From the NCBI GenBank assembly GCA_016929245.1, contig JAFGJE010000251.1:1-62062 (forward strand): a DNA stretch of 62,062 nucleotides, read 5' to 3'. The first letter of the stretch is position 1; each line of letters begins with the position of its first letter. Source of the DNA: Phycisphaerae bacterium (GTDB lineage Bacteria; Planctomycetota; Phycisphaerae; SM23-33). A program made the translations under genes and the position numbers. The notes beneath the pieces are model-generated. The model did not search any database. It saw only the letters and a program-made list of their open reading frames with translations, and was not told where the DNA came from. Below are positions 4,759 through 56,056 of the stretch, in pieces.

Positions 4759-4792
4759 GAATTGCGGATTGCGGGTTGTGGATTGCGGAATG
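4759..4792 (+). repeat. Heptamer tandem array, family C (GATTGCG)n, copy C1
   Basis: GAATTGCGGATTGCGGGTTGTGGATTGCGGAATG just after the moxR stop. Confidence 0.75.
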
Positions 4793-4808
4793 AAGAAAAA
4801 AGATACAT

Positions 4809-4858
4809 TGTCATCCTGAGCGAAGCGAGTCTTCGATCGCAGTCGAAGGACCCCACGC
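4809..4858 (+). repeat. REP-like palindrome, family A, copy A1 (upstream arm of GIY-YIG gene)
   Basis: TGTCATCCTGAGCGAAGCGAGTCTTCGATCGCAGTCGAAGGACCCCACGC; matches 9 other copies in the window. Confidence 0.92.
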
Positions 4859-4895
4859 CCAGGAAAATGACAAACCATACAAACGGAAACAAACC

Positions 4896-5189
4896 ATGAG
4901 ACAGCACAATTACTACGTCTACATCATAACCAACCGGACGCATCGTGTGCTGTACATCGGTATGACCAACAACCTGGAACGCCGTTTGTCCGAGCATCAA
5001 AGCGGAGAGTTCCCCGGTTTTACGAGGAAATACAACGTGAACAAGCTCGTGTATTACGAGCATTACTCGGAAGTTGAATGTGCGATTCGACGAGAGAAGC
5101 AACTGAAAGGCTGGCGACGAGAAAAGAAGAATCAATTAATCGCGAGCATGAATCCCAAGTGGGATGATCTCGCACATGCCTGGGCGTGA
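4896..5189 (+). CDS. Small stand-alone GIY-YIG nuclease (YhbQ/UPF0213-like)
   Basis: YYVYIITN...LYIGMTNNLERRLSEH...GFTRKY...LVYYE...AIRREKQLKGW, with canonical Y/Y/R/H/E positions, 97 aa. Confidence 0.95.
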   Translation: MRQHNYYVYIITNRTHRVLYIGMTNNLERRLSEHQSGEFPGFTRKYNVNKLVYYEHYSEVECAIRREKQLKGWRREKKNQLIASMNPKWDDLAHAWA

Positions 5190-5232
5190 GATCCTTCGAT
5201 TGCGGCCCTTCAGGCCTTCGCTCAGGATGACA
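5184..5232 (-). repeat. Family A copy A2 (downstream arm, overlapping GIY-YIG stop)
   Basis: Reverse complement TGTCATCCTGAGCGAAGGCCTGAAGGGCCGCAATCGAAGGATCTCACGC; inverted relative to A1. Confidence 0.9.
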
Positions 5233-5242
5233 AACCCCAGCC

Positions 5243-5419
5243 TGTCATCCTGAGCGGAGCGAAGCGGAGTCGAAGGAACCCACGCATAGAATGAGTGGCA
5301 TAACCAACACATTGGGAACGTGGAAGAAAAAGCGGAATGAAAATATGAAGTTATTTTCTAAATATCTGCGCGTGGGATCCTTCGACTTCGCTCGAAGACT
5401 CGCTTCGCTTAGGATGACA
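5243..5419. repeat. Family A inverted doublet A3(+)/A4(-) (REPIN-like)
   Basis: A3 5243-5285 is TGTCATCCTGAGCGGAGCGAAGCGGAGTCGAAGGAACCCACGC. A4 5370-5419 is reversed, with one substitution in the core (CCTAAGC). The spacer is AT-rich. Confidence 0.9.
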
Positions 5420-5431
5420 GTATAGAGACTA

Positions 5432-6409
5432 ATGGCAAAAACCAACGGTAACAACTCGAACGAACTGCTGCAGTATCTTGATCCGAAGGTGCTGGCGAAG
5501 ATTACGCGGCTGGATTTGCGCGCGCGGCATGTGGTGGAGGGGTTTGTCAGCGGTTTGCATCGCAGTCCGTTTCACGGCTTCAGCGTGGAGTTCGCCTCGC
5601 ATCGCGAATACGTCTGGGGCGACGATATCCGGCATATCGACTGGAAAGTGCAGGCCAAGACCGACCGGTTCTACATTAAGCAGTACGAGGAAGAAACGAA
5701 CCTAAAGGCGATGTTCCTGCTCGACGCGTCCGAGTCCATGCGGTATGGCGGAACGAATGAAACAACGAGCCCCGGGCGTAAGCCCGGGGACCATCGCTTT
5801 TCGAAATACGAATACGCCGCGACGGCGGCGGCTTCTTTGGCGTTTTTGTTGCAACAGCAGCAGGACGCCGTGGGCCTGGGCATTTTCGACGAGGAACTCG
5901 TCACCTACTCCCCGCCGTCGACGTCCCCCCAGCAGCTTCGCGCGATGATCCACGCGATGAGCGCCGCGGAACTGAAGAATCCAACGTCGCTGGAAGCCGT
6001 CGCACACACGATGGCGGAGAAGATTTCCCGCCGCGGGCTGGTGTGCCTCGTTTCTGACCTGTTCGCCGCGACGGACGGCGTGATCCGCGCGCTGGAGCAT
6101 TTTCGACATCGAGGCCACGAGGTGCTCGTGCTGCATATCCTCGATAAGGACGAGTTGGACTTCCCCTTCGTGGGCAACACGCAGTTCCTCGGCCTGGAGA
6201 ACATGGGCAGGGTAAACGTGCAGCCACGCGCGTTGCGTGAGGCGTATCTGAAGGAAGTCAACGCGTTTTGTCACGAAGTGCAGCGCAAGTGCGTCGCCAG
6301 CCGCATCGACTATAAGCGAATTTCAACAGCCGACAGTCTGGACGCGGCGCTATGCGCGTTCCTGGCGGCCCGCGCCGCGGCGGTACGGAAAACGAGCGCG
6401 AAACGATGA
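5432..6409 (+). CDS. DUF58 protein (MoxR-associated, vWA-like)
   Basis: GLHRSPFHGFSVEFASHREYVWGDDIRHIDWK, LLDASESM, LVSDLF. Confidence 0.93.
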   Translation: MAKTNGNNSNELLQYLDPKVLAKITRLDLRARHVVEGFVSGLHRSPFHGFSVEFASHREYVWGDDIRHIDWKVQAKTDRFYIKQYEEETNLKAMFLLDASESMRYGGTNETTSPGRKPGDHRFSKYEYAATAAASLAFLLQQQQDAVGLGIFDEELVTYSPPSTSPQQLRAMIHAMSAAELKNPTSLEAVAHTMAEKISRRGLVCLVSDLFAATDGVIRALEHFRHRGHEVLVLHILDKDELDFPFVGNTQFLGLENMGRVNVQPRALREAYLKEVNAFCHEVQRKCVASRIDYKRISTADSLDAALCAFLAARAAAVRKTSAKR

Positions 6410-6876
6410 AGAAGTTTGACCACAGAGACACAGAGGGCACAGAGGAAAGAGTTTTTCAATCAAACTCTTACGTATATAAACGTAATAGTGTTTTTTCGAC
6501 GCAGCAATATCCCTGTAAGGATATTACGGAGAAAATTATCGGCTGTGCAATTGCGGTTCATCGTGAATTGGCTGCAGGATTTATTGAATCTATTTATGAA
6601 AATGCACTTGTTTATGAACTCACAAAACAATCGCTAACCGTTGAAAAACAAAAATCGTTAGAGGTTTTTTACGATGGTGTCTTTGTCGGAGAACATCGGG
6701 CGGATTTAATTGTCGAAGGAAAGGTAGTTGTTGAATTAAAAGCCATTCGTGAATTGACTCCACAACATACATCACAATTGATGAGCACAATGAAGGCAGC
6801 AAAATTGAAAGTAGGTTTGTTAATCAATTTCGCGGAAGCACGATTGATCGACGGAGTACAACGAGTCGTTCTATAA
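6406..6876 (+). CDS. GxxExxY protein (PD-(D/E)XK nuclease fold)
   Basis: GFIESIY, RADLIVEGKVVVELKA, GLLINF. The ATGA start overlaps the DUF58 stop. AT-rich (about 37% GC in a sampled line) relative to the flanks. Confidence 0.92.
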   Translation: MKKFDHRDTEGTEERVFQSNSYVYKRNSVFSTQQYPCKDITEKIIGCAIAVHRELAAGFIESIYENALVYELTKQSLTVEKQKSLEVFYDGVFVGEHRADLIVEGKVVVELKAIRELTPQHTSQLMSTMKAAKLKVGLLINFAEARLIDGVQRVVL

Positions 6877-6912
6877 CAACAACTCTGTGACCTCTGTGCC
6901 TCTGTGGTCAAA
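6415..6912. mobile_element. Candidate element: GxxExxY gene bounded by 30-bp terminal inverted repeats (family B)
   Basis: Left arm 6415-6444 TTTGACCACAGAGACACAGAGGGCACAGAG; right arm 6883-6912 reverse complement TTTGACCACAGAGGCACAGAGGTCACAGAG (28/30 identical). GC drops inside, and the unit interrupts the MoxR operon. Mobility is inferred. Confidence 0.6.
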
Positions 6913-6917
6913 ATACT

Positions 6918-35454: not shown

Positions 35455-35568
35455 TTTTTGACCACAGAGGCACAGAGGCACAATTTCATATTTCAAATTT
35501 CAAATTTGAAATTTGAAATATGAAATCGTAATGATTCTGTGTGTCCTCTGTGCCTTTGTGGTCAAAAA
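35455..35568. repeat. Gene-less family B inverted doublet enclosing a perfect 44-bp palindrome
   Basis: Left TTTTTGACCACAGAGGCACAGAGGCACA; right reverse complement TTTTTGACCACAAAGGCACAGAGGACACACAG; inner 35483-35526 ATTTCATATTTCAAATTTCAAA|TTTGAAATTTGAAATATGAAAT. Confidence 0.9.
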
Positions 35569-40746: not shown

Positions 40747-40825
40747 CTCTCACGCGCCCGTCGCCGCATCTTCCGAATGCGACGATCTTGCGTCCCTTCC
40801 ACTCGGCCGAACTTCGTGAGAGAAT

Positions 40826-40892
<67 letters not shown>

Positions 40893-53867: not shown

Positions 53868-53961
53868 AAGAGAACGCGAATAAGACGAATAAAACGAATT
53901 GTTTTCTATCCTAAAAAATATTCGTCTTATTCGTTCTTATTCGTCTTATTCGCGTTCTCTT
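53868..53961. repeat. Family G inverted doublet between rnfC and rnfD
   Basis: AAGAGAACGCGAATAAGACGAATAAAACGAAT versus the right-arm reverse complement AAGAGAACGCGAATAAGACGAATAAGAACGAATAAGACGAAT. Confidence 0.88.
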
Positions 53962-55903: not shown

Positions 55904-56056
55904 GAGAACGCGAATAAGACGAATGAAGACGAATAAGACGAATTTGGTTTTTTTACTTCTGCTTGGCGGGACGGACCTTTCCATGAGGGAGTTCCCCCCC
56001 CCCCACAAAAAAATTGATTCGTCTTATTCGTCTTCATTCGAGAAATTAGCGTTCTC
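55904..56056. repeat. Family G inverted doublet upstream of ispD
   Basis: GAGAACGCGAATAAGACGAATGAAGACGAATAAGACGAAT ... ATTCGTCTTATTCGTCTTCATTCGAGAAATTAGCGTTCTC; the loop contains an 11-C run. Confidence 0.85.

Follow-up and report, generated by a model that had tools for sequence, protein, structure and literature searches.

How does a small nuclease-like gene come to sit inside a bacterial operon, between two genes that are usually adjacent, and what has it to do with the inverted repeats that frame it? The question is raised by a gene of the GxxExxY family on contig JAFGJE010000251.1 of a Phycisphaerae bacterium (GenBank assembly GCA_016929245.1), of which we analyzed positions 1 to 62,062 of the forward strand, called the window throughout. 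Between the DUF58 and BatA genes of the window lies a cassette consisting of the GxxExxY open reading frame (ORF) and two arms of tandem short words. The explanation to which we give about an even chance is a composite one: such cassettes would be foldback elements found across phyla, each combining a GxxExxY nuclease with phased-word arms, selfish or semi-domesticated in character, the nuclease acting on the arms. The GxxExxY proteins (PF13366) make up an orphan family of very large size, with at least 7,942 members among 8,000 scored candidates. Our literature search turned up mentions of GxxExxY that carry neither a function nor a link to repeats, and found no description of an arm-enclosed GxxExxY cassette.

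Anatomy of the cassette

The whole cassette, arms and gene, spans positions 6410 to 6914 on the plus strand, about 505 bp, with limits accurate to about 5 nt either way. The limits were set from the insert-free locus L084, where 3 nt lie between the DUF58 stop and the BatA start, and from the ends of homology between loci L013 and L048. Upstream is the host DUF58 gene (PF01882; 5432 to 6409, plus strand), whose TGA overlaps the ATG of the cassette gene as ATGA, and directly downstream of the right arm is the host BatA/VWA gene (PF07584; 6918 to 9215, plus strand). The left arm (6415 to 6444, plus strand; TTTGACCACAGAGACACAGAGGGCACAGAG) has a TTTGAC cap (here TTTGACC) and three CACAGAG words with a period of 8 to 9 nt; it falls within the coding sequence of an N-terminal extension and is conserved in L001 to L003. 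The right arm (6883 to 6912, plus strand) is an inverted copy of the left one, lying 7 nt past the stop codon and 5 nt before the BatA ATG. Its reverse complement, TTTGACCACAGAGGCACAGAGGTCACAGAG, is identical to the left arm at 28 of 30 positions, and both mismatches are confined to the 1- to 2-nt spacers that separate the three words. A degenerate 30-mer of the arm has four sites within the window, against none in 100 shuffles.

Direct alignment thus bears out the first-pass annotation of this DNA, which had described the arms as 28/30 inverted repeats of three CACAGAG units under TTTGAC. It had also held that the cassette parts two genes that usually adjoin, and this agrees with the Pfam assignments and with the relatives in which both gene ends could be placed, where most DUF58-BatA spacers are 60 nt or shorter and many only 2 to 20 nt. 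The location is a spacer between protein genes and not a 23S rRNA helix; an Rfam scan of the window returned zero families at gathering scores, hence no rRNA.

The GxxExxY protein

The ORF (6406 to 6876, plus strand) encodes 156 amino acids, of which residues 1 to 37 form the extension and residues 38 to 156 (6517 to 6873) a core of the PD-(D/E)XK type. The protein matched TIGR04256 (GxxExxY) with 138.6 bits (cut-off, 35) and PF13366 (PDDEXK_3) with 135.6 bits (cut-off, 22), both profiles in their full length and both spanning residues 38 to 155 only. Across 27 homologues, G58, E61, Y64, D100, L111, and K112 do not vary, and E110 is nearly invariant. The AlphaFold (AF2) model has an alpha-alpha-beta-beta-beta-alpha-beta topology, with a predicted local distance difference test score (pLDDT) above 96 in the core and a disordered 37-residue N-terminal extension. 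A Foldseek search with this model returned PD-(D/E)XK nucleases only, among them lambda exonuclease, Cas4 SSO0001, LHK-Exo, and MGME1; these are generic relatives, with E values of up to about 0.02 and template-modeling (TM) scores of about 0.43 for the best matches. A sequence search of the PDB gave nothing under E = 0.75 (the family is without a solved structure), and PADLOC and PHROGs gave no match to the protein. No transposase family was among the Pfam or NCBIfam matches; a single nuclease domain of about 120 residues is encoded.

The core is under strong purifying selection, with a ratio of nonsynonymous to synonymous substitution rates (dN/dS) of 0.07 to 0.10 at a synonymous divergence (dS) of 0.65 to 1.6 among four orthologues. 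Its GC content is 38%, compared to 60% in the flanks. Profile scores, conserved residues, and base composition together confirm the earlier description of an AT-rich GxxExxY ORF with an intact D...ELK motif.

Arms across the GxxExxY family

Species-representative genomes were scanned with the alignment of 27 homologues, yielding 80 GxxExxY loci that span Planctomycetota, Acidobacteriota, Spirochaetota, Pseudomonadota, Chloroflexota, Bacteroidota, Cyanobacteriota, Nitrospirota, Bacillota, and others. Each locus was scored by the best inverted repeat, without gaps, between the 220 nt upstream and the 220 nt downstream of the gene; the identical geometry, shifted by 1.2 to 1.8 kb inside the same loci, served as control. 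The GxxExxY flanks had a median score of 20, whereas the controls averaged 8.2 and reached at most 11; inverted arms beyond the 99th control percentile were found at 64 of 79 loci. The terminal inverted repeats (TIRs) of tandem short words that the first-pass annotation had proposed seeking beside GxxExxY homologues are therefore present widely, as tandem 7- to 10-mers.

The arms consist of two to four phased copies of a word of 7 to 10 nt, with a period of 10, 8, or 9. The words include CACAGAG, CACAGAT, CGCAGAT, CACGAAA, CGCGAAG, CAGGAA, and CGCCAAG, and CC is the usual end of the outer cap. Of 48 well-defined 5' arms, 40 are rich in purines and none is rich in pyrimidines, and the right arm usually starts 2 to 20 nt past the GxxExxY stop. 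Mismatches between the two arms occur, family-wide, at 12.3% of spacer positions but at 3.6% of word positions (p = 3e-6), and in the four orthologues there is hardly any change in the CACAGAG words, whereas the spacers drift with no compensating changes. Because the words are kept more than the spacers, reading of the arms in a sequence-specific manner is favored over mere pairing.

Arm and protein also travel together. Mapped onto a maximum-likelihood tree built from 88 GxxExxY cores, arm word type changes six times, the minimum possible being five; shuffled labels gave a mean of 24.9 changes, and none of 200 shuffles was as low as six. The protein clades mix phyla. Between L013 and L048, which lie in different contexts, the outer arm ends mark the limits of nucleotide homology, whereas the orthologous pair L013/L053 is homologous throughout. 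At the level of sequence comparison, arms and gene show themselves to be one unit, inherited and horizontally transferred together.

The low GC content is likewise a property of the family. In a set of 85 loci (L001 to L083, L087, L094, L133, and L163), the GxxExxY core averages 10 GC points under its flanks, lies more than 5 points lower in 72, and is never above them. The AT-richness persists in the long-resident clade of the window, where GC content at third codon positions is 0.29 to 0.48 in hosts of about 60% GC; the L087 copy is GC-rich.

Gene-less hairpins

Hairpins of the same family of repeats, family B, occur without a gene in the window. One, at 35455 to 35568, starts 8 nt past a stop codon and has TTTTTGACCACAGAGG arms (23/24 identical) around a 66-nt AT-rich loop, which is itself a perfect palindrome. 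Another, at 40823 to 40892, is decayed, with an intact left arm (AACCACAGAGGCACAGAGGTCACAGAG) and a degenerate right arm, CTCTGAG. Hairpins with the same words and cap as the gene-bearing copies were also found at L007, L013, L052, L053, and L080. In the sediment metagenome from which the window derives, summed word depth was 5250 and 1286 over the two arms, compared to about 10 over the flanks, and many contigs join two arms via loops of 4 to 40 nt. Gene-less hairpins with the same arms thus far outnumber gene-bearing copies.

The hairpins have a T-run before and an A-run after them, on both strands, and their arms are not self-palindromic. The order of the runs is opposite to that of an intrinsic terminator, and that reading was dropped, as were the integron attC and CRISPR readings.

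The design is found with other words as well. Two ORF-less hairpins of a further family, at 53868 to 53961 and 55904 to 56040, flank an Rnf-type gene of the window; they have arms of ACGAATAAG-type 9-mers and a GAGAACGCG cap, match at 25 of 25 and 24 of 24 positions, and follow the same phased-word plan. Elsewhere, at least three CACAGAG/CGCAGAG hairpins surround the GxxExxY gene in the DUF58-BatA spacer of L094 (1800 to 2766), and in that of L119 (2809 to 3075) a CAGGAA hairpin is nested within a CACGAAG hairpin. These arrangements suggest that hairpins insert into or beside each other.

History of the window copy

The three closest homologues, 79 to 88% identical, have the same DUF58-GxxExxY-BatA order and conserved arms, and the arrangement recurs in L004, L005, L087, L094, L097, and P0064. 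The carriers placed on the GxxExxY tree form one protein clade (support, 100/97); L097, which is too truncated, was left out of that tree, and P0064 was not added to it. On the tree of the host DUF58 proteins, the carrier loci fall in one 19-member clade (100/99) with gene-less loci interspersed; L084, with DUF58 87 to 90% identical, is nested within a clade (100/100) that also contains the window, L001, and L003. The spacers that lack the gene are graded in what they retain: L089 has 43 nt forming a solo left arm, L092 and L096 have arm remnants, L090 has 29 nt with the cap and one word, L085 has 9 nt, L084 has 3 nt, and L086 has 2 nt. The insert-free alleles, nested as they are among occupied ones and with graded footprints, are thus best read as secondary losses by ordinary deletion, and not as pre-insertion empty sites or clean excisions in the host clade of the window. 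The first-pass annotation had pointed to empty-site alleles as a check. Relatives lacking the insert do exist, but those of the host clade are losses of this secondary kind.

Trees and synteny show that the window copy came to lie between DUF58 and BatA in an ancestor of a Phycisphaerae-like clade of planctomycetes. The same comparisons establish the copy as old, its sequence history being one of vertical inheritance under purifying selection followed by deletion or decay in several descendants. A recent insertion does not fit the conserved vertical synteny found here, and for this copy such synteny is among the findings that the first-pass annotation had named as counting against its selfish-element reading. 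The junction itself has been entered more than once: in L133 and L163, members of a distant GxxExxY clade with CGCCAAG arms occupy it, and in their host relatives L103, L104, and L127 the stop and start are directly coupled without a footprint, which together argue for at least two invasions. In many other relatives the DUF58-BatA spacers hold gene-less hairpins of many unrelated words.

Two peculiarities of the relatives were noticed. In L084 (1386 to 1391), BatA seemingly begins with ATT (CGT ATT CCC TTT ATT...), compared to ATG in the others; the difference may have arisen with the deletion that took out the cassette, or may be an error of sequencing. L003 (GCA_028700855.1) bears the label Kiritimatiellae, although its cassette is orthologous to that of the window and its DUF58 and BatA show about 85% identity to their counterparts there; the other close relatives are all labelled Planctomycetota or Phycisphaerae, and the bin label of L003 may be wrong.

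Translation start and expression

The only in-frame ATG, GTG, or TTG upstream of the conserved core is the ATG at 6406, overlapping the DUF58 stop. As the sole canonical start, it causes the left arm to be translated, as DHRDTEGTE. In the orthologues L001 and L002, an internal in-frame GTG-ATG lies nine codons ahead of the core; a 3-nt deletion removed it in the window, leaving the host-coupled ATG alone. The arm-encoded N terminus is thus a lineage-specific by-product, and the 37-residue extension is poorly conserved. The claim that the left arm serves as the N terminus and that the start is coupled to the DUF58 stop is correct for this sequence.

Judged by its layout, with no room for a promoter, transcription in the direction of the operon, and an ATG on the DUF58 stop, the GxxExxY gene of the window must be expressed by the host operon. 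Across the family, the upstream neighbor is co-oriented with the GxxExxY gene in 65 of 76 loci, with a median gap of about 90 nt, which suggests that the cassettes depend on read-through transcription. In the predicted RNA, the arms pair over 28 bp, with two mismatches, into a stem that encloses the entire gene, in the minimum-free-energy and centroid structures alike (z = -4.2).

The same design with other cargo

Arms of this kind also enclose genes of other families. In L120, which is related to the host of the window, a gene of PF05635, the 23S rRNA intervening sequence (IVS) protein, lies in the MoxR-DUF58 spacer between inverted GATTGCG arrays matching at 26 of 26 positions. The window has a solo GATTGCG array (AAGAATTGCGGATTGCGGGTTGTGGATTGCGGAATG) at 4759 to 4795, right past the MoxR stop, and L084 has a shorter version. 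Given the L120 gene in the same spacer, the array of the window may be a remnant arm. A second locus of S23p (PF05635), with GATTKCG arrays, is represented by L177 to L180, in which a 43-nt block downstream of the gene that includes the right-arm heptamers (AATCCGAAATCCTAAATCCGAAATCCGCAATTCTTACTATTCC; about 1855 to 2170) varies from about two to six tandem copies between samples. The S23p protein is identical across these samples, so the arm varies in copy number at the level of strains. In L055, CACAGAG arms enclose a DUF5677 ORF.

The MoxR-DUF58 spacer of the window (4809 to 5420) holds, in addition, a gene for a 97-residue GIY-YIG protein (PF01541; 4896 to 5189) between inverted 50-nt repeats (TGTCATCCTGAGCGAAGCG...GTCGAAGGAYCCCACGC; 49/54 identical, 4809 to 4862 versus 5366 to 5419), and a gene-less repeat doublet follows the gene at 5242 to 5420. 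In L084 this spacer is only about 16 nt long. By analogy, gene and repeat look like a pair of the Ssn/NTS type, NTS being CGTCATTCCCGCG...GGGAATC (PMC11893778). Left of the repeat (4795 to 4810), GGAATGAAGAAAAAAG resembles both the true DUF58 start region (5419 to 5445), CTAATGGCAAAAACCAAC, and the uninterrupted GCGGAATGAAAACCAAC of L084; the likeness could be due to chance, or to the start-codon region having been duplicated when the insert arrived.

Relation to known systems

In build, the closest parallel is the ORF-bearing IVS of 23S rRNA. That of Coxiella burnetii is 428 nt long, has a 28-bp terminal inverted repeat enclosing an S23p ORF, carries three tandem GACAGAT heptamers in its 5' region, and is excised by RNase III; its S23p protein seems not to be made, and the origin of such IVSs is described as unexplained since their identification over 25 years ago (PMC4990558). 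The IVSs of Coxiella, Leptospira, and Xanthomonas share with the GxxExxY cassette a promoterless ORF of about 120 codons within terminal inverted repeats some 28 bp long, three tandem heptamers whose words are almost alike (GACAGAT in Coxiella, CACAGAG or CACAGAT in the cassette), and vertical inheritance after insertion into a highly transcribed unit. They differ in residing in helix 25 or 45 of 23S rRNA rather than in the mRNA spacer of an operon, and in carrying a four-helix-bundle S23p rather than a PD-(D/E)XK nuclease (PF13366). The Coxiella S23p is decaying, whereas GxxExxY is under clear selection, and RNase III excision is known for Coxiella, while the GxxExxY cassette is known here from sequence alone.

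In logic, the cassette resembles two pairings of a nuclease or transposase with a dispersed repeat. The Ssn proteins are small GIY-YIG nucleases that cut hairpin repeats flanking their own genes (PMC11893778). As in the Ssn/NTS system, inverted copies of a repeat frame a very small gene for a single-domain nuclease, gene-less copies are scattered through the genome, repeat and protein co-vary, and there are neither target-site duplications nor a transposase. The fold differs, being GIY-YIG (cd10448) in one and PD-(D/E)XK in the other; the NTS is itself a small hairpin, whereas the GxxExxY arms are non-palindromic word arrays that pair across the gene; and site-specific cutting of single-stranded DNA has been demonstrated for Ssn, while cutting by GxxExxY is a prediction. 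With REP/RAYT the cassette shares a single-copy gene flanked by inverted repeats that are amplified as gene-less intergenic doublets, long vertical inheritance, and a semi-domesticated character. RAYT is a Y1 HUH transposase and not a restriction-fold nuclease, and its repeats are short imperfect palindromes instead of phased word arrays. Eukaryotic foldback (FB) transposons also have long inverted arms of tandem short repeats and are mostly non-coding, but they are of kilobase scale and rely on a separately encoded, different transposase, so that the likeness is architectural only. The comparison best supported is with the ORF-bearing 23S IVSs for build and with REP/RAYT and NTS/Ssn for logic.

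Proposed mechanism and alternatives

In the composite explanation, the GxxExxY nuclease would, as the likeliest mechanism, recognize the phased words of its own arms and cut there, probably in DNA folded back as a hairpin or cruciform. As in the REP/RAYT and NTS/Ssn pairs, such cutting would allow the unit bounded by the arms, and its gene-less derivatives, to be copied or maintained with no duplication of the target site. In the operon transcript, RNase III would probably cut the 28-bp arm stem, as it does in the Coxiella IVS, and so make an insertion within an operon tolerable.

Several observations weigh against this explanation. The window copy is vertically inherited, at the dS values given above, with no recent movement seen, and its losses are deletions of graded extent, not clean excisions. 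A search for recent mobility by way of GxxExxY or S23p proteins that are identical between contigs always found them in one context; in the public assemblies they represent the same locus in different samples, and the paralogues L034 and L059, within one metagenome-assembled genome, are sisters but diverged. At the RNA level, G.U-compatible arm mismatches on the sense strand do not exceed those of the A.C type (62 versus 60), and the stem therefore gives no signal of selection distinct from a constraint on DNA or sequence; in the metatranscriptome run of the same study, the locus had no coverage, only the repeated arms attracting contigs of other loci. Finally, the design carries non-nuclease cargo (PF05635 in L120 and L177 to L180, DUF5677 in L055), and the GxxExxY nuclease therefore cannot be its universal engine.

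There is also a wider version, to which we give only a small probability: GxxExxY and S23p would be alternative cargo of one so far unrecognized superfamily of prokaryotic foldback cassettes that end in self-complementary arrays of a phased short word, with the 23S IVSs as its rRNA-resident members, driven by the cutting of clade-specific word arrays in folded DNA. Such cutting would drive copying of the arm-bounded unit to junctions within operons and give rise to the many hairpins without a gene.

The strongest rival is that the protein is a domesticated host nuclease, no longer mobile, which polices or processes hairpin repeats of the genome or incoming single-stranded DNA in the manner of SsnA, with the arms merely two of its many targets. 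We consider this somewhat unlikely. The strong purifying selection during a long stay at this site, vertical inheritance in agreement with that of the host gene, the translational coupling to DUF58, and the constant context of identical proteins are what it would predict, and Ssn provides a precedent (PMC11893778). A host function sits less well with the repeated loss or decay of the cassette in close relatives, with protein clades that mix phyla, and with a gene lying about 10 GC points under its flanks in 72 of 85 loci. There is, moreover, no conserved partner gene or fixed home, the contexts including nuo, arg, and pur-type operon junctions, and no PADLOC match.

Alternatively, the arms may be the real element, moved by other trans-acting machinery or kept for a role in RNA processing or stability, with ORFs such as GxxExxY, S23p, and DUF5677 lodging in the loops as passengers. 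This we regard as improbable. The unrelated cargo within one design, the vast excess of gene-less hairpins, and the ORF-less hairpins of unrelated words in the DUF58-BatA spacers of many relatives all speak for it, as does the IVS precedent in which S23p seems not to be made (PMC4990558). A passenger gene would not explain why the type of arm word follows the GxxExxY tree with hardly a departure or why the catalytic motif is invariant and dN/dS low, and an RNA role finds no sense-strand wobble bias and must contend with words conserved above their spacers.

A classical cut-and-paste TIR transposon with miniature inverted-repeat (MITE) derivatives, the type of element claimed by the first-pass annotation, has in its favor the terminal inverted repeats, the short gene-less copies, and the presence or absence of the insert among relatives, but we rejected it as scarcely credible: the best direct repeats at 67 arm pairs follow the length distribution of a mixed-flank control, giving no excess of target-site duplications; the encoded protein is a single 120-residue domain, with no DDE, serine, or tyrosine transposase; the arms are phased word arrays rather than unique ends; and identical copies in multiple contexts were not found.

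Significance

The architecture of the cassette gives the orphan GxxExxY family a concrete candidate substrate, its own phased-word arms, and ties the family to the intervening sequences of 23S rRNA. If the composite explanation is true, GxxExxY would add a third enzyme fold to the theme of a small nuclease and its cognate dispersed repeat, next to RAYT and Ssn. Should the proteins prove specific for word arrays, with words that differ by clade, they could become reagents. For the organism itself, this class of cassettes would explain why the operon junctions of the window genome are studded with unrelated hairpin families.

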